Of a stretch of 64,000 nucleotides of DNA, positions 5,742 through 61,690 are shown piece after piece (the stretch's first letter is position 1; each line of letters opens with the position of its first letter). This DNA is from Phycisphaerales bacterium (GTDB lineage Bacteria > Planctomycetota > Phycisphaerae > Phycisphaerales > UBA1924), in NCBI GenBank assembly GCA_034004365.1, contig JAVEWV010000009.1, positions 29,637-93,636 on the forward strand, written 5' to 3'. The translations under genes were made by a program, and so were the position numbers. The notes under the pieces are model-generated. The model was not told the origin of the DNA, searched no databases, and saw only the letters and a program-made list of their open reading frames with translations.

Positions 5742-6794
5742 ATGGCCCGCCGCGAAGCCGCCAGCCCGTTCCCCGCCATGCACGCGGGCATGCGCGTCGT
5801 GCTCCTCCACGGCAAGGACGCCCTGCTCCGACAGCTCCTCACCGAGCAGCTCGTCGAGGCCCTCAAGGCCGAGCACGGCGAGATCCAGCGGGCGTCCTTC
5901 CTCGGCGGGCAGTGCACCCTCGCCGACGTGCTTGATGAGTGCCGCAGCTTCGGCCTGCTCGCCGAGCACAAGCTCATCGTCATAGACGACGCCGACCAGC
6001 TCGTCCGCGAGGACACCCGCCCCGCGCTCGAGCGCTACGCCGCCTCGCCCTCCGACGGCGCCACGCTCGTGCTCCGCGCCGAACGCTGGTACCCCGGCAA
6101 CCTCGACAAGGCGATCGCCAAGGCTGGCCTCGCGCACAAGTGCGACGCGCTCGACGAGGCGACCGCCGCCATGTGGGCGACCAAACGCTGTGAGAAGCGC
6201 CACGGGGCGCCCATCGACCGGCGCGCCGCGGCGATGCTCGTCGATCGCGTGGGCACCGACCTCGCCACCCTCGATTCGGAGCTCGCCCGCCTCGCGGCCC
6301 ACGCCCTCTCCGCGAGCGGAACCGTCACGCCCGAGGCTGTCGCCGAGCTCGTCGGCGCACGACGCGAGGAAGAGGTCTGGGGCGTGCAGGAAACACTGCT
6401 CCGCGCGGGCATGGCGGGCGACGCCGACGCGGCCCTCGCCCACCTCCGCCGCCTCATCGACGTCTCGCGCCAGCCGCCCACACTCATCCAGTTCGCCCTG
6501 ACCGACCTCGCCCGAAAGATGCACCACCTCGCCGTCGGGCAGGCCCAGGGACAGAACGCGTTCTCCCTCGCCGGCAAACTCCGCATCTGGCCCCGCGAGC
6601 GAGCCGCGGCGATGGGCGAGGCCGCCGGTCGCGCTGGCCCCCGCGCCACCGCCGACCTCCTGCACGCCTGCGTCGATGCCGACCGGCGCATGAAGAGCGG
6701 CCTGGGCAGCGACGAGCGCACCCTCGAGCGTGAAACCGTGCTCTTCGTCCGCACCCTTTCCGGGGTGGGGACGCGGGGCGGCGCGGGTCGATAA
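5742..6794 (+). CDS. holA: DNA polymerase III delta subunit
   Basis: VVLLHGKDALLRQ... then ...KLIVIDDADQL and ...TLVL.AE, the typical HolA clamp-loader delta N-terminal pattern. The start may be one of the internal Met (5778 or 5790). Confidence 0.7.
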   Translation: MARREAASPFPAMHAGMRVVLLHGKDALLRQLLTEQLVEALKAEHGEIQRASFLGGQCTLADVLDECRSFGLLAEHKLIVIDDADQLVREDTRPALERYAASPSDGATLVLRAERWYPGNLDKAIAKAGLAHKCDALDEATAAMWATKRCEKRHGAPIDRRAAAMLVDRVGTDLATLDSELARLAAHALSASGTVTPEAVAELVGARREEEVWGVQETLLRAGMAGDADAALAHLRRLIDVSRQPPTLIQFALTDLARKMHHLAVGQAQGQNAFSLAGKLRIWPRERAAAMGEAAGRAGPRATADLLHACVDADRRMKSGLGSDERTLERETVLFVRTLSGVGTRGGAGR

Positions 6795-6860
6795 ACCCGG
6801 AAGAGACTCGCCGGGGATCGGCGGGGCCAACGACATTCCCGCGGAGCAGGAGGCGACGCG

Positions 6861-8147
6861 ATGGAACGACACGACGCACGCTCGATCACGACGCACGCCC
6901 CGCCCTACCCATCACCGAGGGCCCTCGCCGCGGGTGCGCTCGCGGGATGCCTCGCCCTGCACCTCGCCGGGTGCATGACCGGCCCCGACGCCCAATCCAA
7001 TGACGGGCCCTCCGCCGGGCTCAACGCCCTCATGAGCGAGGACGGCGGGGGCATCCGCGCCACCGACGTCGACACGCCCGCACCCGACGATTCCGCCGCG
7101 GCGGCCCTCGCGCAAGCCGCCGAGGAGTCCGCCCGACTCGTCGAGCAGTACCTCGCCAGCCAGCGCGCAGAAGGCACGAGCGATGCCCCCGACGCGACCG
7201 CCTCGAACAACGCGTCGCCGGGCGGGAGCCGGATCGTCGCGCCCACCACAACCGATCCCGCGCCCATCCAGACCGACATCGCCGCGAATCCCGAAGCGAC
7301 CCTCGCGAACGCCCCGGTATCTGTGAACGCCGCGCCCGATCCCGAGATGGAACGCCGCGAGGCGATCGCGCTGCTCGCGCGCGAGCTCTCCGTCGGTGTC
7401 GCCGCGGGCGACGCGCCCTTCCGCAGCGCGCTGGGCCTCCTCGGGCTCGACGAGATCGAGCCCGGCACGGGCTGGTCGACCCTGGCGAGCGCTCTTTCGG
7501 GCGAGCTCGCGCCGGGCGAACGCCGGACCATCGAGTCGCTGCGTGATCTCCTCACCCGCGTCGCGCACCCGAATTCCGCTGGAATTTCCGGCATTTCTGG
7601 TGTTCCGGGCGATCCCGCCGCGCTCGCCGACGCGTACGCCACGGAGCTGGAGAAGCTCGCCTCGGCGCTCCCGGTGCGGATCGTGCGCGCAGAGCTATGC
7701 ACGCGCGTCGAGGGCTTCGGACAGTTCGAGCCGATCGCGTCGCGTCGCCTCATCGCCGGACGCCCACACCGCATGATCGTGTATGTCGAGGTCGATCGCT
7801 TCGCGCACCGCGCGATCGACGATTCCTCCGCAGGCCGCAGCCTCGCGGCACAATCCAGCCAATCCACGGGCGACATGTACGAGGTGGAACTGACGCAGGA
7901 GCTCCGCCTGCAGCACGACGTTGACGGCGCGCTGGCGATGATGCGCCCCGCGGAGCGCGTGCGCGAATCGCTCCGGAGCGTGCGCCGCGATTTCTACGTC
8001 GTGCAGGAGATCGAGCTGCCCGCGACGCTCGCCACGGGCGGGTACACCCTCCGCGTGCGGATGCGCGACGCGGTGGGGGGGACCACCGCCGAGGCGGCGA
8101 TCGGGATCACGCTCGTCGCCGACGCGGCGACCGCCCGGGCGGAATGA
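6861..8147 (+). CDS. hypothetical lipoprotein
   Basis: 428 aa. N-terminus has the lipobox-like LALHLAGC|MTG. Then a long Ala/Pro/Asp-rich linker and a C-terminal beta-rich domain. No family recognised. Confidence 0.5.
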   Translation: MERHDARSITTHAPPYPSPRALAAGALAGCLALHLAGCMTGPDAQSNDGPSAGLNALMSEDGGGIRATDVDTPAPDDSAAAALAQAAEESARLVEQYLASQRAEGTSDAPDATASNNASPGGSRIVAPTTTDPAPIQTDIAANPEATLANAPVSVNAAPDPEMERREAIALLARELSVGVAAGDAPFRSALGLLGLDEIEPGTGWSTLASALSGELAPGERRTIESLRDLLTRVAHPNSAGISGISGVPGDPAALADAYATELEKLASALPVRIVRAELCTRVEGFGQFEPIASRRLIAGRPHRMIVYVEVDRFAHRAIDDSSAGRSLAAQSSQSTGDMYEVELTQELRLQHDVDGALAMMRPAERVRESLRSVRRDFYVVQEIELPATLATGGYTLRVRMRDAVGGTTAEAAIGITLVADAATARAE

Positions 8148-11198: not shown

Positions 11199-11720
11199 TC
11201 AGCGACGGCGACGGGTCACGACGAGGCCCATCGCGCCGAAGGCGGCGAGAGCGCCCGGCGCGGGCACCGCGCGATACGTCACACGAACGAAGCCCTGGCG
11301 GTACAGCGCATCCGGAGTCGAGCTCGCGTCATCGAACGACTCGTAGGTCGTCAGGAACACGAGGCCGTCCGACGAGATGGTGTTGGCGCCGATCGATCCG
11401 AAGTAGGCGAACACGCCGGACGAGTCGGGCGCGCCGAAGAGGGAGGGGTCAATGTCAGCATCGAAGCTCGCGTCGTCGTTGGTGTCGATGGCGATCTGGG
11501 CCTCGCTGTTCCAGCTCGGGTCGAAGGACTCGTAGGAAACGTCCCACTCGACAGCGACGACCACGCCCGCGACGCCGAAGTCGTGCGTCAGGGTGGGGAA
11601 GTTGGTACCGAAGCCGCCTTCGCTGACCAGTCCGGTCATGTCGAAGGTGTGGAACAGGGTCTGCGCGCTGGCGCTCGTGGCGATCACGATGCCAGCAACC
11701 GTTCCGAGAGTCTTGATCAT
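11199..11720 (-). CDS. secreted protein with PEP-CTERM-like (P-A-P) C-terminal sorting signal
   Basis: Signal peptide MIKTLGTVAGIVIATSASAQ. C-terminus VPAPGALAAFGAMGLVVTRRRR, i.e. Pro motif, hydrophobic helix, Arg cluster, stop. Confidence 0.65.
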   Translation of the reverse strand: MIKTLGTVAGIVIATSASAQTLFHTFDMTGLVSEGGFGTNFPTLTHDFGVAGVVVAVEWDVSYESFDPSWNSEAQIAIDTNDDASFDADIDPSLFGAPDSSGVFAYFGSIGANTISSDGLVFLTTYESFDDASSTPDALYRQGFVRVTYRAVPAPGALAAFGAMGLVVTRRRR

Positions 11721-12118: not shown

Positions 12119-12649
12119 TTAGCGGCGGCGACGACCAGCGACCAGACCACCGAGGCCCAGCAGGGCGACGGAGGCGGGCGCGGGGATGTTGCCGAAGATC
12201 ACGCTGGCGCCCTGGGGGCCGTAGTAATCGTTGCGATAGTCCATGGTCACGCCGTTGTCGAACGTGGTGGTGACGGCGTAGTACTGGGTGTTCGCGGTGA
12301 GGTTCAGGCCGACGACATCGGAGGTGCCGATGCCGCCCGAGCCATCGTCATCGCTGCCGATGCCGTTGGCCGTGGGGTTCGCGGGGTTGAAGCTGCCGGC
12401 GTACACGAACAGGAACCCGTCGTCCGTCTGGGTCGACAGGATGTCGTAGGTGCCGGTCGTGTTGACGTAGAACGGACGGACGTCGAAGAAGACGTTCGTG
12501 CCGACGCCGGACAGGCCGCTGAAGCCCTCGAGGGCACGGTTGTACGTCGCCTCGGAGCCATCGATCGAGCCGATGTCCGTTGCGAGCTGACCAAACGCGG
12601 CCCCTGCGAGCAGGGCGACCGCCAACCCACCACTGAGCAGATTCTTCAT
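12119..12649 (-). CDS. secreted protein with PEP-CTERM-like (P-A-P) C-terminal sorting signal
   Basis: Signal peptide MKNLLSGGLAVALLAGAAFGQ. C-terminus IPAPASVALLGLGGLVAGRRRR. GGAGAGGAGAGAAGGAC precedes the ATG. Confidence 0.65.
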   Translation of the reverse strand: MKNLLSGGLAVALLAGAAFGQLATDIGSIDGSEATYNRALEGFSGLSGVGTNVFFDVRPFYVNTTGTYDILSTQTDDGFLFVYAGSFNPANPTANGIGSDDDGSGGIGTSDVVGLNLTANTQYYAVTTTFDNGVTMDYRNDYYGPQGASVIFGNIPAPASVALLGLGGLVAGRRRR

Positions 12650-52297: not shown

Positions 52298-53512
52298 TCA
52301 GCCGTGCTTGGCCCACTCCCAGGTCTTGACCGCGCTCGTGTCCCTGCCGAGGCGCTGGCAAAGGTTGGCGGCGAAGCATGCGCGGGTGTTCGCGGGATCG
52401 TGAAAGACACGAAGGCGGCGCGTGGCGTCGGTGGGCGCCCACGACGGGGCACGCTCGAGCGATTCGGTAAGGCCGCGAGCGAAGGCCTGTTCATCGCTCA
52501 CGTTACACGTCCAGCCGAGTCCGAAGTGCGGCACGACCGCCCGGAACCATCCATAGTCGCCCGTGAGCACCGGGCGGTTCGCGGCCATGGCGCGGAGGCA
52601 GATGTTCGAGAGCCCGACGTGGTTGGGATGGCAGGTGCACACAACGTCGGCGGCACTCATCGACCACGCGAGCTCATCGTCGGAGATGTAGCGATCCATC
52701 ACGATGACGCGACCCTCGCGCACGAGCGGCGCGAGTGCGCCATCGAGCAGCGTGCGCACGATCGTGTCCGTCCGGCCGGCGAGGAGCAGGCGATCGTTCG
52801 ACGCAAGCTTTGCGGACGCGAACGCCTTGAGCAGCAGGTCCGCGCCCTTGCGCGTCGAGATTGCGCCGGAGAGGGAAATGAGCCGGCCGTCCTCGGGGAG
52901 AGAGAGGCGCGAGCGGGCATCGCGCTTGTCCATGTCGGGCACGTCATCGACAGGGTCGGGCAGGACGCTCGCGCGGCGGGCGAGGGGATGGCCGTGGGCG
53001 GCGAGCCACTCGTACGCGACCACGTCTACGTACTGCACGCGGGCGAGCGGCGCGTGGGTGAGGGCCGCGAGGCGAAGCCGGCGATACACACGATCGCGTA
53101 CTCCGCTTGCGGGGTAGGCGTACGGCCCGCGGTGCATGCAGGCCTCGACCGACACGCGCTTGCGACGGAAGTGCGCGGCGGTGCGCGAGCCGGGCAGCCC
53201 GAGGATCTGCGCGAGCCCGTCCGCGGAGGGCAGGAACACGTGGTCGGCGTGGTGGGCGTCGATCGCGTGCTCGAGCGCGTGGTTGGCAGCGCGACCCTTG
53301 TTGAGTGTGCCCTTGGCGCGTTCGAACGGAACGCCGTGGAACTGGAAGCGATCCCCGAGCGGGGCAAGCTGGACACGAAAGGCGTCGGTGTCGAGCGCGT
53401 CCTGTCCGAGCACCACGCTGACCTCACAGAGGCCCTCGAGCGCGGGAAGGAGCTGTCGGACGTAGGTGAGTCGGTGCCCGCCGGCGTCGGGCTCGAAGAT
53501 CAGCGCGTGCAT
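52298..53512 (-). CDS. GT-B fold glycosyltransferase (GT4-like)
   Basis: 404 aa. N-terminal MHALIFEPDAGGHRLTY. C-terminal donor-binding region (RLLLAGR....DELAWSMSAADVVCTCH...GLSNICLRAMAANRPVLTGDYG). Confidence 0.65.
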   Translation of the reverse strand: MHALIFEPDAGGHRLTYVRQLLPALEGLCEVSVVLGQDALDTDAFRVQLAPLGDRFQFHGVPFERAKGTLNKGRAANHALEHAIDAHHADHVFLPSADGLAQILGLPGSRTAAHFRRKRVSVEACMHRGPYAYPASGVRDRVYRRLRLAALTHAPLARVQYVDVVAYEWLAAHGHPLARRASVLPDPVDDVPDMDKRDARSRLSLPEDGRLISLSGAISTRKGADLLLKAFASAKLASNDRLLLAGRTDTIVRTLLDGALAPLVREGRVIVMDRYISDDELAWSMSAADVVCTCHPNHVGLSNICLRAMAANRPVLTGDYGWFRAVVPHFGLGWTCNVSDEQAFARGLTESLERAPSWAPTDATRRLRVFHDPANTRACFAANLCQRLGRDTSAVKTWEWAKHG

Positions 53513-53687
53513 GGGCGAACAGGGTAGGTTGGCGGGGGGAGGGGGCGTTCTCGGACGGGCGGGTGAGCATGCAACGCCGGGCCGAGGGGGCGGAAATGCC
53601 GCGGAGTTCCTTGGGGGTCGGGCGTCGGTCGGTTACCCTCCGGCTGGCCCGCGCGGAGGATCGGCGGGCGGAGCAAGGAGAGACGAC

Positions 53688-54407
53688 ATGGCGCGGCGTT
53701 CGATGGCGGCGGCGGTGTCTCGCAGGCTCGCGTGCGCGGCGCTCGTGGGGGTCTCGGGCACCGCATGGGCGGACGACGTCGTGGTGGTCGACCTGACCGG
53801 CGTGCGTCTGCAGAACGGGCTGAACCAGAGCGTGACGAGCGGGGCGGACACCATCGACCCCGACACCCTGTACAGCTATGTGATCGACGGCATGGTGCGG
53901 GGTGAGTCGGGCCTGCTCGCGGCGTTGGTCCCGAATCCCAGGCCGCTGGGCGAGGTGCTTGAGCTGTTCGCGGCGGGCGCATCGAGCGCGCTGGTGGGCA
54001 CGGGGTGCAACCCGAGCGGGCAGGTGCCGTTCGACGTCGTCAACGCGCCGCTCTCCGGCTCGTCGGTGGTGCTGGGCATAACGGTGAATGCGTCGGTCAC
54101 GCTGTCGGCGGGGATCGATGCGAACGGTGTGGCATACTTCAGCGCGACGAACGTGGTGCTGACGCCGTCGTCGCTGGTGGGCTCGGCGGTGTTCACGAGC
54201 GGGAGCGTGACGGTGCGGGGGCTGCGTCCGTGCCTGGCGGACTGGGACGCGTCGGGCGGCACGCCCAACAGCAGTGATTTCCTTTCCTACCTAAACGATT
54301 GGTCGCTGGGCGACGCGTGCGCCGACCTCGCGCCGCCGGGCGGGGACGGCAACTTCGACTCGTCGGACTTCCTGGCATTCCTGAACGCGTACGCGGGCGG
54401 ATGCTGA
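53688..54407 (+). CDS. secreted protein with C-terminal Cys-bracketed dockerin-like module
   Basis: AAGGAGAG precedes the ATG. Signal peptide MARRSMAAAVSRRLACAALVGVSGTAWA. Last 58 aa: CLADWDASGGTPNSSDFLSYLNDWSLGDACADLAPPGGDGNFDSSDFLAFLNAYAGGC-stop. Confidence 0.7.
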   Translation: MARRSMAAAVSRRLACAALVGVSGTAWADDVVVVDLTGVRLQNGLNQSVTSGADTIDPDTLYSYVIDGMVRGESGLLAALVPNPRPLGEVLELFAAGASSALVGTGCNPSGQVPFDVVNAPLSGSSVVLGITVNASVTLSAGIDANGVAYFSATNVVLTPSSLVGSAVFTSGSVTVRGLRPCLADWDASGGTPNSSDFLSYLNDWSLGDACADLAPPGGDGNFDSSDFLAFLNAYAGGC

Positions 54408-54442: not shown

Positions 54443-54526
54443 TGCGGGCGACAGGAATCGAACCTGCACGGCCTTTCGGCCACGGGAACCTAAATCCCGC
54501 GCGTCTGCCAGTTCCGCCACGCCCGC
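54443..54526 (-). tRNA. tRNA-Leu (anticodon UAG)
   Basis: Hand-folded cloverleaf. Acceptor GCGGGCG/CGCCCGC. 3-bp D stem. Anticodon arm CGGGA-UUUAGGU-UCCCG. Long variable arm GGCC-GAAA-GGCC. T arm GCAGG-UUCGAUU-CCUGU. Discriminator A. CCA is not encoded. Confidence 0.85.
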
Positions 54527-54665
54527 GGATTCAGCGCAATCCTAACCATGCGGACCCGTGGTTCGCGGACGCGACCCTTGAACCACCCCGCACCCTCCCG
54601 GTAGGCTCGTGGCCGGTCGCGCAGAGTGTGTGACGCGAGCAGGGGTATCCAGGGAGGAGAGCGAT

Positions 54666-57230
54666 ATGGTGCGTGCGCGTGATGTTGTTGCCGCGTGTGG
54701 ATGTGTTGTCGCTGGCGCGAGCCTCGCGGCGGGACAGGCTTTCGGTCTCGAGCCGACGAGCGCGACGGGCGAGCTTGCGAGCCCGCGCATGGTCCTGCCC
54801 GCGCCGCAGCTCGAGCTGAACGCGGGAGCACCATGGGAGACGCGGGGCGGCCCGGGCGTTCCGACGGTGTACCAGCCCGGCGTCCCCGCGGAGGGTGACG
54901 CGCCCTCGGCGTCTCGCTTCACGCCGGACGGATCGCAGATCATCGTCGCGCACCGCGACACGAAGAACCTGATCGTGTACGACGCGAACACGCGGGCGTT
55001 CGTCCGCGAGATCGTGCTGTCGGGCTCGCCGCTCGACCTCGACGTCAGCGCCAACGGCATGTACGCCGTGACGGCGAACGGGATCGAGGACACCGCGTCG
55101 ATCGTGAATCTCGCGACGGGTGTGGAGGTCGCGACGGTTGCCGTGGGTGATACGCCGGGCATCGTGCGCATCACGCCCGACTCGACGAAGGCGGTCGTGG
55201 GCAACGCGCTGAGCGCCGACTTCTCGATCATCGACCTGGCGTCGAAGACGGAGGTCAACCGCTGGAGCGGCGGCGATTTCTCCGTGACGCTCTCGTTCGC
55301 GCCCGAGAACTCCACGGTGGAGATCCGGTACGGCACGTTCGAGCTGCCCGACAGCAACACCATCCTGCACCCGCGCCGGTTCTCGAGCCAGATAGCGCTC
55401 ATCGACATCGACACGGGCACCGACACGACGCTCGCTTCGGCCGCGAACCCCGCGGGCGTGGCGCTCATCCCGGGCGGGGGCACGAAGGCGTACATCTCCC
55501 ACGCGAGCAACACGCGCACGATCAGCGTCGTCGACCTCACGACCAAGACCATCAGCCAGACATGGTCCACCACGACCGACCTGACCGGACCGATCGCGGT
55601 CGAGATGGGCGGGGCGTCGGCGGTGGTCGCGGTGCAGAACGCGGTGCGGTTCGTCAACATGACCACCGGCGCCGAAAGCACCAACCGAAACACCGCGAGC
55701 GTGAACCAGATCTACACCACCGCGGACGGCTTCTACGCCATCTGCATCGGGTTCAACGGGAGCCTGCTCCAGTACGCGACGCAGGCCATCGTCAAGAACA
55801 CCAACACCCTGGTCTCCGCGTCGCACGGCTCGGTCTCGCCCGTCGACCAGCGGGCCGCGATGTTCTCGACGACCTTCGGCGAGGACATGGTCGTGGTGAG
55901 CACCGACGGACCCTCCGGCGGGCTCGAGAGCTTCACCCTCTCGGGGCCCGAGCCCGAGGTCGACAAGCCCCGCACCGTCGCGGTCAGCCCCGACGGCAGC
56001 AAGGCCGCGGTGGTGGGCATCCTGTCGGACAGCGTCACCGTCTACAACACCGCGACGGGTGCCGTGCTCGGACGGGCCAAGACGGGCATGCGTCCCGCGG
56101 AGGCCCAGTTCACGCCGGACGGGTCGAAGATCGTGGTCGCGAATCTCGATGACGCGTTCCTGACCATCGTGGACACGACAACCTTCGCGGTGACGAACGC
56201 GCCGATCTCGCGCCGCGGCGGGATCGTCGAGATCTCGCCCGACTCGCAGACCGCGTACGTCCCGGTTATCGCCGATGGCGACGGCGTGTGGCGCGTGAAC
56301 CTGAACACGGGCACGTCGTTCGGTGGCAAGCTGCTCACGCCCTCCGCCAGCGGCGGCATGGGCGGCGTGGGATACCTCTACCAGCAGAACAGCGGCGCGG
56401 CCCTTTCGCCCGACGGTCAGACCTTCGTCACCGCGAACAGCTTCGAGAACTCCATCTCGATCATCAACACCGCGACGTGGTCCGTCGTCGCGAACGTCCC
56501 GACGGGGTCCTTCCCGACCTACGTCGCGTTCAGCCCCGATTCATCCAAGATCTACGTCTCGATCAAGAACTTCAACACGACGAGCGGCGCCTCGGACCGC
56601 GTCTCGGTCGTCAGCAACGCCGGCGCCGCGAGCGCCGTGCTCAGCAACATCACCGTGGGCGACCAGCCCTGGGTGCTCATCCCCACCGCCGACGGCCAGA
56701 AGCTCTACGTGCTCAACTATGGCAGCCAGAACATCGGCGTGGTGAACCTGAACACCAACACGCAGGTGAGCACAATCCCGATGCCGAACCTCATCAGCGA
56801 CATGGCCTACTCCGCGAGCGCGAACTGCCTCGTCGTCAACACGGGCAACTCCACCGTCACCGTCGGCAACCCGGTCGGCATCGCCTTCGCGCAGGACGGC
56901 GAGCTGAACGTCATCGATACCACCACGGACACCGTGACCGAGATCATCGACGTCGACCACGTCTCTTCCGACGTCGCGATCGACGACGACCTCACCGTCG
57001 CCGCCCTCCCCGGCATCTTCAGCGACGAGTTCATCCTCGTCGATTTCACCCCGGGCTGCGCGGGCGACTGGGATAACAGCGGCGGGCTGAACAGCTCGGA
57101 CTTCCTCGCCTACCTGAACGACTACTCCGCCCAGAATCCTGTCGCGGACCTCGCCCCGCCCGGCGGTGACGGCCTGTTCAACAGCTCCGACTTCCTGGCC
57201 TTCCTGAACCTCTACGCCGCCGGCTGCTGA
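54666..57230 (+). CDS. YVTN-type beta-propeller repeat protein with C-terminal Cys-bracketed dockerin-like module
   Basis: AGGGAGGAGAG precedes the ATG. Signal-like N-terminus. Many repeats of the type SPDGSK..V(A)N...D.(V/I)(S/T)(V/I)(I/V)D..T..V. Last 57 aa: CAGDWDNSGGLNSSDFLAYLNDYSAQNPVADLAPPGGDGLFNSSDFLAFLNLYAAGC-stop. Confidence 0.8.
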   Translation: MVRARDVVAACGCVVAGASLAAGQAFGLEPTSATGELASPRMVLPAPQLELNAGAPWETRGGPGVPTVYQPGVPAEGDAPSASRFTPDGSQIIVAHRDTKNLIVYDANTRAFVREIVLSGSPLDLDVSANGMYAVTANGIEDTASIVNLATGVEVATVAVGDTPGIVRITPDSTKAVVGNALSADFSIIDLASKTEVNRWSGGDFSVTLSFAPENSTVEIRYGTFELPDSNTILHPRRFSSQIALIDIDTGTDTTLASAANPAGVALIPGGGTKAYISHASNTRTISVVDLTTKTISQTWSTTTDLTGPIAVEMGGASAVVAVQNAVRFVNMTTGAESTNRNTASVNQIYTTADGFYAICIGFNGSLLQYATQAIVKNTNTLVSASHGSVSPVDQRAAMFSTTFGEDMVVVSTDGPSGGLESFTLSGPEPEVDKPRTVAVSPDGSKAAVVGILSDSVTVYNTATGAVLGRAKTGMRPAEAQFTPDGSKIVVANLDDAFLTIVDTTTFAVTNAPISRRGGIVEISPDSQTAYVPVIADGDGVWRVNLNTGTSFGGKLLTPSASGGMGGVGYLYQQNSGAALSPDGQTFVTANSFENSISIINTATWSVVANVPTGSFPTYVAFSPDSSKIYVSIKNFNTTSGASDRVSVVSNAGAASAVLSNITVGDQPWVLIPTADGQKLYVLNYGSQNIGVVNLNTNTQVSTIPMPNLISDMAYSASANCLVVNTGNSTVTVGNPVGIAFAQDGELNVIDTTTDTVTEIIDVDHVSSDVAIDDDLTVAALPGIFSDEFILVDFTPGCAGDWDNSGGLNSSDFLAYLNDYSAQNPVADLAPPGGDGLFNSSDFLAFLNLYAAGC
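57057..57230 (+). repeat. dockerin-module coding repeat, copy 1
   Basis: 174 nt that align without gaps to 60348-60521. I hand-counted about 16 mismatches. The last ~54 nt differ at one position. Confidence 0.8.
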
Positions 57231-57271
57231 AGCCCCTCGGCGGCGAGAATCGCCACATCACGCCTCCGATT

Positions 57272-57308
57272 CCCCCGTCCGCCTCCGAGCGGGCGGGGGA
57301 TTTTCTTT
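57272..57308 (+). terminator. rho-independent terminator
   Basis: 11-bp stem CCCCCGTCCGC/GCGGGCGGGGG (one G-U pair), loop CTCCGA, then ATTTTCTTT. Confidence 0.65.
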
Positions 57309-57369
57309 GGGCGGGGGCATTGGGGGCGGGAAGGGTGAATGGCCGAAACCCTTGGGTGCCCGCGCCCGG

Positions 57370-57981
57370 ATGGGTATGCTGTTCGGGGCGTCCCTCGTGG
57401 CGCTCGAGCGCCAAGGACAGACTGGAGCCGGTCCGGTGAAACGCCGTCGCACATCGCACACCAGCCGACTCGCCCGCCTGCGGGCGCGGGTGGTGGATGT
57501 GGTGTGGGCGGTGGTGATCCTGGCATTCTCGCTCGCGAGCCAGGGCTGGGTCCCCGGCTCGGGGGCCTTCGGCGGGCAGTCCGGGCACAACGTCTGGGCC
57601 CGCTGCGGCTCGTCGATGTGCGCCTGCGAGTCGAACGTGCCGCTCGCCGAGCACCGGGGCGTCGCCGCCTTCCGTCAGAAGCTCTGCCCACTGTGCCCGG
57701 ACGACCCGGCCGACGTGCCGTGCGATCGGGACGAGCCGAGCCGTGACGATCGTTCCCCCGCGTTCAAGCCGCTGCTGGTCCTGGCGAAGAGCGGCGGACT
57801 GGGCGTGGCGTGCCCGACCGACCTCGCGTCGATGGGCGTCTCGCTCTGCCTGCTGGGCCTTTCGCGGCCCTCCATCAGCGTGGAGTGCGGGCCCGAGGTC
57901 CGGAGCGTCGCGTGCGCGACCCTGGATTCTCGCCCCGAGTCCCTGTCCCTCGCCGTCCCCGAGCCCCCGCCCCGAGCCTGA
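57370..57981 (+). CDS. hypothetical Cys-rich membrane-anchored protein
   Basis: Good GC3 bias. One hydrophobic helix (VVDVVWAVVILAFSLAS), then CGSSMCACES...KLCPLCPDD...VPCDRD and further Cys. Start moved to 57370 so that it does not overlap the upstream terminator. No family recognised. Confidence 0.4.
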   Translation: MGMLFGASLVALERQGQTGAGPVKRRRTSHTSRLARLRARVVDVVWAVVILAFSLASQGWVPGSGAFGGQSGHNVWARCGSSMCACESNVPLAEHRGVAAFRQKLCPLCPDDPADVPCDRDEPSRDDRSPAFKPLLVLAKSGGLGVACPTDLASMGVSLCLLGLSRPSISVECGPEVRSVACATLDSRPESLSLAVPEPPPRA

Positions 57982-58026
57982 CGAGCCGCGATCTCTTCGC
58001 GTGCGCGCCGGCGTGGAGCGTGCCTA

Positions 58027-58827
58027 TTGGCCCGTTCCTGCCCGACGCGTGTTCCGCTCGTTGCACTCCTGCTGCGGAGGCTTCTCCCGTTGCGCTTCGA
58101 ACGTCGGGCGAATCCGGGCCGATCGGGCTCGGGCTTCACGCTCATTGAATTGCTCGTGGTCATCGCGATCATCGCGCTGCTGATCGGCGTGCTCCTGCCC
58201 GCACTGGGCTCGGCACGTGAGAGTGCGCGGGGCGTCAAGTGCCTCGCGAACCTTCGCTCGATCGGGCAGTCGGTGGCGCTGTACCACAACGCCTTCGATG
58301 GGCACTACCCCCTCTCCAGCCACGCCACCGGATCGAGCATCGATCCCGGCGCATGGCTGTCGTCGCTGGTCGAGTACGGCCTGATCGACGACACCCGCTA
58401 CTGCCCGACCGACCTCCAGCGCAACAAGACGACAGCCGCCGATTTCGCACGCACGACCAGCTACATCACCAACGACCACTTCGAGCCGCTCACCGCGGGC
58501 ATCGACTTCGATCCGTTCAGCGGCCGCACGCTCCCCGGGGGGCGGACGCGCGCGATCACACGGATCGAGCAGATCCCGCGTCCGACGGCGACGATCTACG
58601 CGGTGGAAGCGGCGGACCCGCTCGATGCGGGCGCGGTGGTGGACCATCTGCACTCTGTGGGGTGGGCACGAGCGGAGCAGGTCGCGCAGCAGATCGCGGT
58701 CGAGCGGCACAAGGGATCGGCGTCGTACCTCTTCGCCGATTTGCACGCCGCGGCGATCCCGTGGGGCGCGTTGCGAGACGAGTTCTCGCCCGAGACGAGC
58801 CCGTTCAATCCCGAGACCGCGCGCTAG
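58027..58827 (+). CDS. prepilin-type N-terminal cleavage/methylation domain protein (H-X9-DG / DUF1559-like)
   Basis: [45 protein letters not shown] is the type IV pilin-like leader and helix. C-terminal [12 protein letters not shown] resembles H-X9-DG. A TTG at 58090 would give a more usual short leader. Confidence 0.8.
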
Positions 58828-58936: not shown

Positions 58937-59587
58937 ATGAAGATTCGTACGACCGCCGCCATCGTTCTCGCCGCCCTCGCCCCCGCCGCCCTCGCGCAGG
59001 ACCACGGGCACATGACCGTGGATACCGCGAGCGGCACGCCGGGCGATCAGATCGTCATCAGCACGTACCCCACCGAGACGAACTTCTCGATCGTGGGCGG
59101 CGTGCTGCACCGCGCGGGCGTCCCCGCCGTGTTCGACCTGACCGATTGGCAGCCCTCGGGCTCGTTCCAGGGCTGGTTCCTGGGCCAGACCATGACGCTC
59201 ACCGCCGACTTCTTCGTCGCGACGGGGCGCCTCGATGGGGGCAATTTCGCCTTCGAGGTCGCGGGCCTGACGCCCGAGGGCGGCGCCGGCCCGGGCCGCT
59301 TCGCGATGGTGAGCCAGCACGGCACCGACTTCGAGCTCGAGGCCGACAGCGACGGCGCGACTCGTGCGGATCGCACCTGGGTCATCGGCTTCAACATGCA
59401 TCCGCACGGGCAGCGCGTCATGCTCCAGGGCTCCGGGCTGTACCGCGTCGACCTCGTCGCGTGGGACACCAACGGCGTGTACACCGACTCTGCACCCGTT
59501 TCTTTCTACGTGCAGACGCCCGCGCCCGGCGCGCTCGCCACGCTCGGCGGTGGGCTTGTGCTCGTCTCGCGTCGCCGTCGGCGCTGA
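58937..59587 (+). CDS. secreted His-cluster domain protein with PEP-CTERM-like (P-A-P) sorting signal
   Basis: Signal MKIRTTAAIVLAALAPAALA|QDHGHMTVDT. C-terminus TPAPGALATLGGGLVLVSRRRRR. Paralogous to 59748-60521. Confidence 0.7.
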   Translation: MKIRTTAAIVLAALAPAALAQDHGHMTVDTASGTPGDQIVISTYPTETNFSIVGGVLHRAGVPAVFDLTDWQPSGSFQGWFLGQTMTLTADFFVATGRLDGGNFAFEVAGLTPEGGAGPGRFAMVSQHGTDFELEADSDGATRADRTWVIGFNMHPHGQRVMLQGSGLYRVDLVAWDTNGVYTDSAPVSFYVQTPAPGALATLGGGLVLVSRRRRR

Positions 59588-59747
59588 GCAGTTCGTGAAG
59601 CAACACACGCTCGGGGCTGAGCACCCGCGCGTGAACGATCAATGAGGTCTGGCGCGGCGTCGGAGAGATTCGCCGCCCGCCATTAAGGAACAAACCCGGC
59701 GCGCAGCACGCACGCCGCCAGAACGCAATGAGACACGGGAGATCGAC

Positions 59748-60521
59748 ATGAGCACACGAGCCATCGCGGGACTGATCGTCGCAGCGTTCGCCTCCGCGGC
59801 GATCGCGCAGGACCACCACCACATGACCGTCGACACCTTCACCAGCCTCGACGGGCCCAAGATCAAGATCGTCGTCGGATTCCTCGGAGGCGAGGAGTCC
59901 TTCTCGCTCGATGAAAATGGCACCCTGCTCTTTGACGGCACGCCGCACACGTACGAGCTGACGAGCGTCTTCTCGAGCGGCTCGCTCGCGGGCTGGGGCG
60001 CGGTGCAGGGACTCACGCTCACGAGCGACTACTACTTCGCGACCGGACGCCTCGTCGGAGGAAACTTCCACTTCGAGATCACCAATGCCGAGCGTCTGAA
60101 CGGCTCCACCTCCGCGTTCGCGCTGGGATACTTCCCGAGCGCGACGCCCTTCGTCGACGCGCGCAGCGACGGGGCCGATCGCGCCGCCCGCAGCTACACC
60201 GTCGGCAACGGCGGGCACCAGCACGGGCAGTTCATGGCGCTCCAGAATCCGGGCGTGTATCGCATCACCCTCGCCGCGTGGGATTCCAACGGTGTGTATC
60301 TCGATTCGGACCCCGTGAACTTCCTCGTCGAGGTCCCGGGCTGGACGTGCGCGGGCGACTGGGACGAGAGCGGCGAACTCAACAGCTCGGACTTCCTCGC
60401 CTACCTGAACGATTACTCGGCCCAGAACCCTGCTGCGGACCTCGCCCCGCCCGGGGGCGACGGGGTGTTCAACAGCTCCGACTTCCTCGCCTTCCTGAAC
60501 CTCTACGCCGCCGGCTGCTGA
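59748..60521 (+). CDS. secreted His-cluster domain protein with C-terminal Cys-bracketed dockerin-like module
   Basis: Signal MSTRAIAGLIVAAFASAAIA|QDHHHMTVDT. Last 57 aa: CAGDWDESGELNSSDFLAYLNDYSAQNPAADLAPPGGDGVFNSSDFLAFLNLYAAGC-stop. Confidence 0.75.
   Translation: MSTRAIAGLIVAAFASAAIAQDHHHMTVDTFTSLDGPKIKIVVGFLGGEESFSLDENGTLLFDGTPHTYELTSVFSSGSLAGWGAVQGLTLTSDYYFATGRLVGGNFHFEITNAERLNGSTSAFALGYFPSATPFVDARSDGADRAARSYTVGNGGHQHGQFMALQNPGVYRITLAAWDSNGVYLDSDPVNFLVEVPGWTCAGDWDESGELNSSDFLAYLNDYSAQNPAADLAPPGGDGVFNSSDFLAFLNLYAAGC
60348..60521 (+). repeat. dockerin-module coding repeat, copy 2
   Basis: See copy 1 (57057-57230). Confidence 0.8.
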
Positions 60522-60598: not shown

Positions 60599-60730
60599 GG
60601 GTGCTGGACGCCGGAAACCGCCCGGGCCGATAGCGAACAATGGTGCGCGGGGCCGGGCGGATGTGCCCGCGCGCGTGCCCGGGTGGGGTCGTGCGAGGGG
60701 GCCGAGCACCCCCGCGAAAGGAAGCCGGAG

Positions 60731-61690
60731 ATGTCGCTGCGACAGGGCCTTGCGATGAACGCGTCGCCTGTGGTGCTCCGCCTCGCGCTCGCGGTCGTTT
60801 TCTTGTGGGCGGGGCTTGGCAAGCTGACGCAGACGATGCCCGTGACGGGCGACGCCGCGGCACGCCTGGCGAACATGGGCGTGAACCTCGATCGGAGCGC
60901 GGGGCAGGGCTCGCCCGCGCGCGATCCGCGCAATCCGGCCCCCGAATCGCCCATCGATCCGCCCGAGAGCCGCGCGACGGACGCCGGGAGCGCGATGGGA
61001 TTGGCGATGATCCCGTCGTTCGGCACGATCACGCTGGGCCAGATCGAGCCCGCGCGGCCGAGCTCTCAGCCGACACAGGACGATCCGCAAGACTCGCCCG
61101 GCAACACCCCGAGCGGTGCGCAGTCGGGAACAACTTCTAAGCCGAGCACGCAGGCGTCCAGTCCGCTCAAGACCTCGGCGGATTTTCCCCAGACGATTGA
61201 GGTCCGCCGCGTGTATGGGGTCGCGCTCCTGCTCTCCAAGGGCGCGGTCCGCACGGGCACGAAGGACGATGCCTCGCCCAAGCCCGCGATCGTGCCCAGC
61301 GCGATCGTGCCGAGCGAGACCAGCCGAGTGCCCGTCTATCTCGCGTGGGCGGCGGCGCTCACAGAAGTGTTCGCTGGCGCAGCGGTGCTTGTTGGGCTGC
61401 TCACTCGTTTCGCCGGGCTCGCGCTCGTCTTTGTGATGCTCACCGCGATCTGGCTCACCACCAGCGGGCCCGCGTGGCAGGCAGGCACGGCTCGCCTGGG
61501 GTTCATTCCGGGGCACGACCCCTTCGACGGCCAGGCGTGGACCACACCCCTCATGCAGTTGATATGCCTTGCCATGTCGCTCTCGGTGTTCCTCACCGGC
61601 GCGGGCGCGTTGTCGTTCGACAACATGCTCTTCGGTGGATCCGCGCCCGCGAAGCCCACCAAGCCGGCACCCAAGCCCGAAGGCAAGTAA
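60731..61690 (+). CDS. DoxX-family membrane protein with a long low-complexity insert
   Basis: Start MSLRQGLAMNASPVVLRLALAVVFLWAGLGKL (the DoxX first helix with G.GK). C-terminal helices LTEVFAGAAVLVGLLTRFAGLALVFVMLTAIW and LICLAMSLSVFLTGAGALSFD. Pro/Ser/Thr/Gln-rich insert between them. Confidence 0.65.
   Translation: MSLRQGLAMNASPVVLRLALAVVFLWAGLGKLTQTMPVTGDAAARLANMGVNLDRSAGQGSPARDPRNPAPESPIDPPESRATDAGSAMGLAMIPSFGTITLGQIEPARPSSQPTQDDPQDSPGNTPSGAQSGTTSKPSTQASSPLKTSADFPQTIEVRRVYGVALLLSKGAVRTGTKDDASPKPAIVPSAIVPSETSRVPVYLAWAAALTEVFAGAAVLVGLLTRFAGLALVFVMLTAIWLTTSGPAWQAGTARLGFIPGHDPFDGQAWTTPLMQLICLAMSLSVFLTGAGALSFDNMLFGGSAPAKPTKPAPKPEGK

Follow-up and report, generated by a model that had tools for sequence, protein, structure and literature searches.

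In the 64,000-nucleotide stretch of Phycisphaerales bacterium DNA analyzed here (GenBank assembly GCA_034004365.1, contig JAVEWV010000009.1, positions 29,637 to 93,636 of the forward strand; hereafter the window), two adjacent genes encode paralogous proteins, P1 and P2, which carry the same passenger domain on two different C-terminal anchors. From profile comparisons, we regard it as established that the passenger is a remote homolog of the choice-of-anchor M / TIGR03769 domain and represents a divergent Phycisphaerae branch. The best explanation of the pair, to which we assign a probability of about 0.55, is that P1 and P2 present a divergent choice-of-anchor M-type divalent-metal domain, with Zn2+ as the likeliest metal, at two depths of the envelope, within a gene cassette that would capture, buffer or relay metal. 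The domain superfamily (NCBIfam) and its link to zinc (PMC12445094) are already known; the sub-threshold planctomycete branch, its N-terminal HxH variant, the pairing of a PEP-CTERM-like tail with a dockerin, and the cassette partners have not been described before. The two genes and their conserved motifs are as follows.

58937..59587, + strand: P1, third gene of the cassette; 216 aa, with signal peptide (1-20), passenger (about 21-194) and tail (194-216)
59748..60521, + strand: P2, fourth gene of the cassette; 257 aa, with signal peptide, P1-type passenger and GC-type dockerin
59000..59014, + strand: P1 N-terminal motif D22-H23-G24-H25-M26, conserved in the family and placed onto HxD by global hhalign
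59811..59825, + strand: P2 N-terminal motif D22-H23-H24-H25-M26, from the alignment with P1 and family conservation
59399..59413, + strand: P1 second motif H155-P-H157-G-Q159, aligned to the HxH that is invariant in choice-of-anchor M and ZnuE/F/G
60216..60230, + strand: P2 second motif H157-Q-H159-G-Q161, from the alignment with P1 and family conservation
59219-59248 (P1) and 60039-60068 (P2), + strand: ATGRL(D/V)GGNF block, from the MAFFT alignment
59459-59482 (P1) and 60276-60299 (P2), + strand: AWD(T/S)NGVY block, from the MAFFT alignment

An earlier note on this DNA, made from the sequence without database searches, had called the two gene products paralogous, and this is confirmed by BLASTP: P1 and P2 are 44% identical across 198 residues (E 4e-43). 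All four of the shared blocks quoted in that note are present in the MAFFT alignment, with the correction that P2 has an ungapped YYFATGRL. The signal peptide of both proteins closes in A-x-A and is followed by Q-D-H-x-H-M-T-V-D-T, and the mature N terminus of P1 according to the −3/−1 rule is Q21. The ATG at 58937 was taken as the correct start of P1, because the longer open reading frame (from 58625) overlaps the upstream gene and the homologs begin at an MKIR-type signal peptide. The spacing between the two HxH motifs is 130-132 residues in P1 and P2, in line with the approximately 130-150 residues that separate HxD from HxH in the choice-of-anchor M domain.

The passenger family was gathered first by a profile search, which gave 80 relatives from 5.8 billion clustered proteins; HMMER, run exhaustively against 1.84 billion representatives (50% identity clusters), gave 105 matches at E <= 1e-3, of which about 60 span the full length. 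All named sources of the family are Phycisphaerae or Planctomycetota metagenome-assembled genomes, and a profile scan of genome contigs placed 20 of 20 loci from GTDB species genomes in Phycisphaerae/Planctomycetota. No Pfam or NCBIfam model covers the P1 or P2 passenger at its cutoff. The Pfam matches of P1 and P2 to HdeA, InlK_D3, and Gram_pos_anchor are marginal and were dismissed as noise, and matches to the NF038129 "PEP-CTERM family" model were rejected as evidence of full-length relatedness, the score in distant members stemming from the tail only. The family profile also catches PKD-type repeat proteins with type IX secretion system tails (P0117, P0133, P0137 and similar); the PKD-repeat matches of the exhaustive search were rejected as family members, their coverage being the terminal hairpin. 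The likeness of PGxYxVTLxAWDxxG to the WDFGDG region of PKD hints that the C-terminal part of the fold has a distant immunoglobulin (Ig)/PKD-like ancestry.

The histidines picked out in the earlier note are conserved among homologs. Conservation was counted in an alignment of 126 single-domain family members, using P1 numbering: H25 is kept in 123 of 124 sequences, H23 in 112 (with Glu in 10 more), H155 in 120, H157 in 116 (with Asp or Glu in 10 more), and Q159 in 108. This is far above chance expectation. Moreover, the N-terminal and second His motifs covary. Eight of the 10 sequences with Glu23 are also altered at 155/157/159 (L-x-D-x-E or H-x-E), compared with one of the 112 sequences with His23, and the joint change at position 23 and positions 155/157/159 arose in at least two clades.

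Homology to the choice-of-anchor M domain is seen with profile methods. An NCBIfam scan of 79 first-round members produced sub-threshold matches to choice_anch_M (NF038134, curated cutoff 55 bits) in 26 of them, to TIGR03769 (cutoff 30.9 bits) in 23, and to TIGR03773 in 12; the best E-values were 2e-4 for NF038134 and 2e-5 for TIGR03769, both below cutoff. In the reverse direction, the hidden Markov model (HMM) of the family picks up P0143, which contains six repeats and reaches 669 bits on NF038134, at E 4.6e-7. When the family was compared by hhalign with choice-of-anchor M repeats, the probability was 96.1% (E 3.3e-9), with HxH placed on HxH and a residue-for-residue alignment over the SDG..R..F....GGHxH...F..PGxY block. 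Compared with 26 single-domain choice-of-anchor M proteins, the local alignment reached 96.8% and the global alignment 97.6% (E 1.5e-11, 158 columns), the latter setting H23-x-H25 on the H-x-D of GHxD(I/V)G in an N-terminal region of low confidence. P1 (HPHGQ...GSGLYRV) and P2 (HQHGQ...NPGVYRI) both possess the C-terminal block of HxH, an aromatic residue and a PGxY-type motif. In P0317, itself a bona fide choice-of-anchor M protein, HAHVHV replaces GHxD right behind the signal peptide. The choice-of-anchor M repeats were then aligned with the domains of ZnuE, ZnuF, ZnuG, and CmrA, represented by the nine domain sequences of Fig. S1 of PMC12445094, at 99.6% probability (E 1e-23), again by hhalign; the direct comparison of the window family with the Znu domains gave a probability of only 53-68%, with HxH on HxH. 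Taken in sequence, the alignments of the family to choice-of-anchor M and of choice-of-anchor M to the Znu domains therefore connect the window family by homology to the Znu HxD/HxH domain.

The first experimental link between zinc and the HxD/HxH (choice-of-anchor M) domain dates from 2025 and concerns one Gram-positive pathogen (PMC12445094). The Corynebacterium diphtheriae proteins ZnuE, ZnuF, ZnuG, CmrA, and CmrA2 have a common HxD/HxH motif around approximately 150 residues, and AlphaFold DB models bring the HxD and HxH together in a single pocket (Peng, Lyman & Schmitt, J Bacteriol 2025, PMC12445094). ZnuE, ZnuF, and ZnuG shift in nano differential scanning fluorimetry upon addition of Zn, and His-to-Ala mutants of the Znu proteins lose in vivo function (PMC12445094). 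Expression of the C. diphtheriae operon and of cmrA/cmrA2 is under repression by Zur and zinc (PMC6711530), and in Gardnerella, choice-of-anchor M genes are co-induced with an anchored-repeat ATP-binding cassette (ABC) transporter (PMC11979175). ZnuE, which has a transmembrane (TM) helix and a positive tail, is located in the membrane and is needed for uptake, and ZnuG is sortase-anchored in the wall (PMC12445094).

The Znu/Cmr domain and the window family are alike in having a beta-rich domain of approximately 150-180 aa that opens with an H-x-(D/H) strand and closes with H-x-H, an aromatic residue, and PGxY. Both sets of proteins carry signals for secretion, and in both a single locus mixes anchors, the TM helix and positive tail of ZnuE resembling the tail of P1, and the wall anchor of ZnuG resembling the dockerin of P2. 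They differ in that the window family has an N-terminal HxH rather than HxD, 0-2 residues from the mature N terminus, and consists entirely of single-domain proteins; the host is a diderm planctomycete that uses a PEP-CTERM-like tail and a GC-type dockerin rather than TM or LPXTG anchors; and the neighbors of P1 and P2 are genes for Cys-rich and prepilin-like proteins rather than a ZnuABC transporter. A similar comparison holds for NF038134/TIGR03769 proteins, which occur with the TIGR03772/03773 anchored-repeat ABC transporter systems: the HxH, SDG...R, and PGxY blocks align, and the NF038134 domain also bears alternative C-terminal anchors (PEP-CTERM and at least one GC-like dockerin, P0335). 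Unlike those proteins, the window family scores below the cutoff, its N-terminal half lies beyond confident alignment, it is without the LHVHDE second-strand motif of many canonical members, and no associated ABC transporter was found next to the family genes of the window or of eight annotated loci. The range of the choice-of-anchor M domain thus takes in Planctomycetota (Phycisphaerae), an environmental phylum of diderms, through a branch that the curated models miss. Recurrence of the same layout, one domain on two anchors in one locus, without an ABC transporter speaks for two-layer placement in the envelope as an inherent part of how the domain works.

The anchors of P1 and P2 are found at the following positions.

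59516..59587, + strand: P1 C-terminal sorting/anchoring tail, TPAPGALATLGGGLVLVSRRRRR, with PEP-CTERM architecture and sub-threshold scores
60348..60521, + strand: P2 GC-type dockerin, C201 ... G256-C257, identified by NF041540

The earlier note had assigned an exosortase-type tail to P1. Its architecture is indeed tripartite at the C-terminal end, TPAPG-ALATLGGGLVLVS-RRRRR, with PAP replacing PEP, but it falls below the cutoffs for both TIGR02595 (PEP-CTERM; 12.2 versus 16 bits) and MYXO-CTERM (17.9 versus 20 bits). The TIGR02595 cutoff is passed, at 19-24 bits, by deep-branching relatives with VPEP...RRRR tails (P0113, P0119, P0125, P0128, P0132, P0147, and P0161). Two further small secreted proteins of the window, encoded at 11199-11720(-) (173 aa) and 12119-12649(-) (176 aa), end in (V/I)PAP/hydrophobic/RRRR like P1, and the PAP variant of PEP-CTERM is therefore a recurrent sorting signal in the source genome. 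The dockerin-like Cys...GC module of P2 was correctly recognized: residues 201-257 score 54.8 bits on NF041540, for which the cutoff is 29. This module contains a pair of duplicated D-x-(D/N)-x-(D/S/N)-G...DF segments, and in a PDB sequence search the dockerin part of the family profile matches the solved cellulosomal dockerins 6kg9, 2y3n, and 6kge (E approximately 4e-4). It is similar to cellulosomal type-I dockerins in its duplicated segments and profile matches, and dissimilar in having a Cys at both ends, a GC terminus, and a non-cellulosomal organism of origin. Literature searches on the GC-type dockerin gave no publication. Two more GC-type dockerin proteins are encoded upstream, at 53466-54407(+) and 54609-57230(+), with 43.9 and 48.3 bits on NF041540; their dockerin modules have almost the same sequence as that of P2, and the 54609-57230 product is an 873 aa YncE/lactonase-like double beta-propeller.

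The passenger is a genuine choice-of-anchor domain, as the earlier note had proposed. Among the 126 members, 60 end in a GC-type dockerin, 51 in a PEP-CTERM-like tail, and 14 in a plain dockerin without the terminal Cys. In a neighbor-joining tree of the passengers, the deepest branches are all PEP-type and the tail types are otherwise interspersed, with recent swaps visible where P0018 (GC) is nested among the PEP-type P0021, P0041, and P0048, and where L011 (GC) is sister to L005 (PEP). By reading, P0115 (307 aa) and P0124 (298 aa) have a dockerin-like duplicated segment plus a terminal PEP-CTERM tail in one polypeptide. Ten choice-of-anchor M proteins (P0284, P0286-P0289, P0291, P0292, P0294, P0314, and P0317) share a C-terminal ...(F/Y)(F/Y)RL(R/W)... 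motif that is neither PEP-CTERM nor LPXTG and may be a further sorting signal for the choice-of-anchor M domain; two of these proteins are named Verrucomicrobia.

Loci were typed by HMM, giving 25 that are non-redundant. A PEP-type copy occurs together with a dockerin-type copy in 16 of the 25, adjacent to each other in all except L016 and with the PEP copy first in 13 of the 16; three loci have the PEP type only, and six the dockerin type only. In the clade formed by L018, L020, L021, L024, L025, and L026, identity is 75-88% among the PEP copies and 75-84% among the GC copies, compared with 39-46% between partners in the same locus. This pattern indicates that the duplication predates those genomes, and that each paralog has retained its anchor since. 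The earlier note had inferred that the two tails are interchangeable attachment routes: tails have certainly been swapped in evolution, but functional interchangeability does not sit well with the 16 loci that keep both types. Paired retention and the stability of the anchors therefore make the PEP-type and dockerin-type copies look complementary rather than redundant, as judged from the distribution of the genes.

P1 and P2 are preceded by two genes that recur beside the family in other genomes, and the four genes form a cassette whose remaining features are listed here.

57271..57300, + strand: intrinsic-terminator-like hairpin and T-run forming the 5' boundary of the cassette behind the beta-propeller gene; a 12-bp stem with 10 GC pairs, then TTTTCTTT
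57436..57981, + strand: cassette gene 1, Cys-rich protein with an N-terminal TM segment and C-terminal PEPPPR; 181 aa (P0273), aligning with its homologs at Cys and PPP columns
58027..58827, + strand: cassette gene 2, prepilin-type pseudopilin-like protein with the N-methylation motif GFTLIELL (PF07963, TIGR02532)

No further + strand terminator was found between 57300 and 61000, the end of the scanned region. The prepilin-like product of 58027-58827 scores 28.2 bits on PF07963 (cutoff 21.2), 25 on TIGR02532 (16.3), and, near threshold, 22.9 on DUF1559 (23.3). Its orthologs, which are 46-54% identical, adjoin passenger genes in 23 of the 25 loci. Conserved blocks of the homologs are PxSSH, TN(D/E)HFEPL, PGGR, DH, and RH-X9-DGH; nothing on the function of DUF1559/H-X9-DG turned up in the literature. 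The Cys-rich gene was detected by HMM in 17 of 25 loci and is nearly always first in the cassette. Its family, approximately 100 clusters that are all hypothetical Phycisphaerae proteins and have no Pfam or NCBIfam match, is characterized by one N-terminal TM segment, the block PCExCGCGCxSxxECWxxCCCHS..ER..W, then CxxC, and a terminal PPPR. The window copy is divergent or degenerate and has lost the CCCHS block. Homologs are found at L001 5620-6147, L002 4537-5169, L004 3469-4083, L005 4356-5096, L007 3613-4296, and L008 9833-10432. The cassette thus gives three uncharacterized planctomycete gene families a common context: the GC-type dockerin proteins, one subfamily of the large prepilin-like H-X9-DG/DUF1559 group, and the Cys-rich membrane protein. 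A second cassette of L008 (9833-12708) has the order Cys-rich protein, prepilin-like protein, PEP-tailed protein, GC-dockerin protein, and its two passengers, which are paralogous to each other (KHIMV...LHNWY), show no relationship by hhalign to the window family or to choice-of-anchor M (approximately 1%). The pairing of a PEP tail with a GC-type dockerin therefore looks like a property of the cassette and not of a single domain.

AlphaFold2 models of both proteins are confident. P1 (predicted local distance difference test score 90.6, predicted template modeling score 0.82) is all-beta from 25 to 194 with a helix at 199-215, and the model of P2 (92.1) has three helices, at 213-224, 233-236, and 243-255, behind its beta-sandwich. 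The best Foldseek matches are to generic Ig-like, glycosidase-accessory, pilin, and cupredoxin domains, and a PDB sequence search with the passenger returned no match, the only matches being dockerins to the P2-type tail. Being small, single-domain and confidently modeled, P1 and P2 are practical targets for the first structure and metal measurements of the superfamily.

Taken with the homology to the Znu HxD/HxH domain, the covariation of the two motifs indirectly supports the suggestion of the earlier note that the His clusters form a metal site, for which Zn2+ is the most likely metal by homology. Covariation, and the single pocket of the ZnuE/G models in AlphaFold DB, likewise lend indirect support to a convergence of the two motifs. 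We found no evidence for the redox-enzyme or metallophore-receptor functions that it also put forward. In our working model, P1 and P2 would be secreted single-domain beta-sandwich proteins in which the N-terminal HxH, as counterpart of HxD, and the H-x-H-G-Q about 130 residues further on would converge on one divalent-metal site. P1 would be held at the membrane by its hydrophobic helix and Arg cluster in PEP-CTERM-like manner, comparable to membrane-anchored ZnuE, and P2 would be docked through its GC-type dockerin onto a partner, comparable to wall-anchored ZnuG. P1 and P2 would work with the Cys-rich membrane protein and its prepilin-like neighbor, whose genes are presumably co-transcribed with theirs, in capturing, buffering or relaying metal across the envelope. 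The streptococcal Pht proteins resemble this model as surface His-motif zinc binders that pass on or buffer metal; their fold and motif (HxxHxH) are unrelated, and the likeness, also drawn by the ZnuF/G authors (PMC12445094), is one of analogy only. A bolder version, which we advance tentatively and consider rather improbable, is that the four-gene cassette is an undescribed, Phycisphaerae-specific envelope metal-handling system in which the pseudopilin and the thiol-rich membrane protein would replace the actinobacterial ABC transporter, the site at the mature N terminus may have been retuned, e.g., toward Cu or Ni, and the cassette logic can host an unrelated passenger, as in L008.

Several observations weigh against a zinc-type site in P1 and P2. 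The curated choice_anch_M cutoff is not reached by either protein, P2 scoring 16 bits against the required 55 and P1 having no match. Confident profile alignment is limited to the C-terminal 90-100 columns, and the equivalence of the N-terminal motif comes from the low-confidence global alignment. Even for the Znu proteins, binding at the motif is unproven, the His-to-Ala mutants keeping the Zn-induced shift in vitro (PMC12445094). Neither an ABC transporter nor a Zur box nor any other zinc gene or regulator was found beside the family genes, whether those of the window or those of the eight loci with annotation. Foldseek searches of the PDB with both models gave no convincing match (best TMq 0.32 and 0.29), so that the site is without structural precedent, and neither a solved fold family nor a metal site can be carried over to the passenger. 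Finally, with the site 0-2 residues from the mature N terminus and thiol-rich neighbors, the metal could be Cu or Ni instead of Zn.

That last possibility can be framed as a histidine-brace-like or amino-terminal Cu(II)- and Ni(II)-binding (ATCUN)-like site using the N-terminal amine, with a cassette devoted to copper handling or resistance. According to the −3/−1 rule, the HxH is offset from the mature N terminus by 0 residues in 65 of 124 sequences, by 1 in 36, and by 2 in 21, which puts the invariant His at mature residue 3, 4, and 5, respectively. Residue 1 of the mature protein is His or Glu in the 65, usually His and in few Glu, two positions before the invariant His; mature P1 and P2 would start with Q-D-H instead, which matches the X-X-H pattern of ATCUN sites. 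The HxD of canonical choice-of-anchor M proteins is several residues further from the cleavage site, and the extreme N-terminal shift is specific to the window family. Also pointing to copper or nickel are the Cys-rich membrane protein of the cassette, a CopZ/MerP-like heavy-metal-associated (HMA) neighbor at one locus, and weak Foldseek matches to laccase and CueO cupredoxin domains (probability 0.4-0.8, TM-score approximately 0.3). Histidine-brace proteins such as CopC, PmoB with its CuB site, and the lytic polysaccharide monooxygenases (LPMOs) are likewise secreted beta-sandwiches with a His at or near the mature N terminus and a distal His pair, and around half of the family is predicted to have His1. 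However, the variable offset, together with the Glu that replaces the first His in 10 sequences, argues against a strict histidine brace. To our knowledge, true histidine-brace families keep His1 invariant; in the window family it is not, and it is absent from P1 and P2, whose N-terminal Gln is able to cyclise and block the amine. There is no CopC, LPMO or PmoB structure among the Foldseek fold matches and no such match in the PDB sequence search, the HMA neighbor occurs in a single locus only, and the sole experimentally studied homologs are zinc proteins (PMC12445094). We consider a Cu/Ni site, the main rival reading, unlikely.

The alternative anchors invite another reading, that the tandem pair is a mere duplication whose two tails are interchangeable routes of attachment for one function. 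Such redundancy would fit the interspersed tail types on the tree (P0018; L011/L005), the nine of 25 loci that have a single type, and the two proteins read as bearing both tails. It is difficult to reconcile with the 16 loci that keep both types, mostly with the PEP copy first, with the L018/20/21/24/25/26 clade, in which both copies and their anchors have been retained since before the genomes diverged, or with L008, where the second cassette repeats the PEP and GC pairing on a passenger that is not detectably related. In C. diphtheriae, moreover, differently anchored copies differ in phenotype (PMC12445094), and we consider redundancy of P1 and P2 doubtful. A metal-free role would make the passenger an adhesive or structural Ig/PKD-like surface domain, in which the histidines serve folding, pH sensing, or contact with a ligand such as a polysaccharide. 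The family profile does catch PKD-type repeats (P0117, P0133, P0137) via the PGxYxVTLxAxDxxG hairpin, the fold matches are to generic Ig-like, pilin, and glycosidase accessory domains, and the neighboring GC-dockerin proteins of the window are beta-propeller and other non-metal proteins. Those PKD matches are nevertheless confined to the last 30-60 profile positions, and the His residues of the homologous domain are needed for zinc-dependent phenotypes (PMC12445094). Conservation and covariation of the His pairs, four near-invariant His in two HxH motifs, make an exclusively structural or adhesive role unlikely, and we give it very little credence. The divalent-metal domain at two envelope depths remains the reading that we prefer.

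Inspection of the upstream region by eye gave no evidence for zinc regulation of the cassette, unlike the Znu locus, and no Zur-like AT-rich palindrome was visible in 57180-58060. A scan for sigma-70 promoters returned no match. At gathering thresholds, Rfam detected no riboswitch or other RNA near the cassette; its sole match in the 64-kb window is a tRNA at 54443-54526(-). Directly downstream of the lone PEP-type member of L005 is the gene for the CopZ/MerP-like HMA protein (6751-7209; GMGCPNC), which may be a lipoprotein if ...LMMPGC is read as a lipobox. Downstream of the three-copy family array of L003, the product of 6798-7676 has a weak match to DUF4198 (E 3.7e-4, below cutoff); a common annotation of DUF4198 proteins is that of a periplasmic component binding Ni/Co. 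In the window itself, P2 is followed at 60698-61690(+) by a gene for a membrane protein of the DoxX family that has a long insert rich in Pro, Ser, and Thr; this gene is not kept beside the cassette elsewhere.

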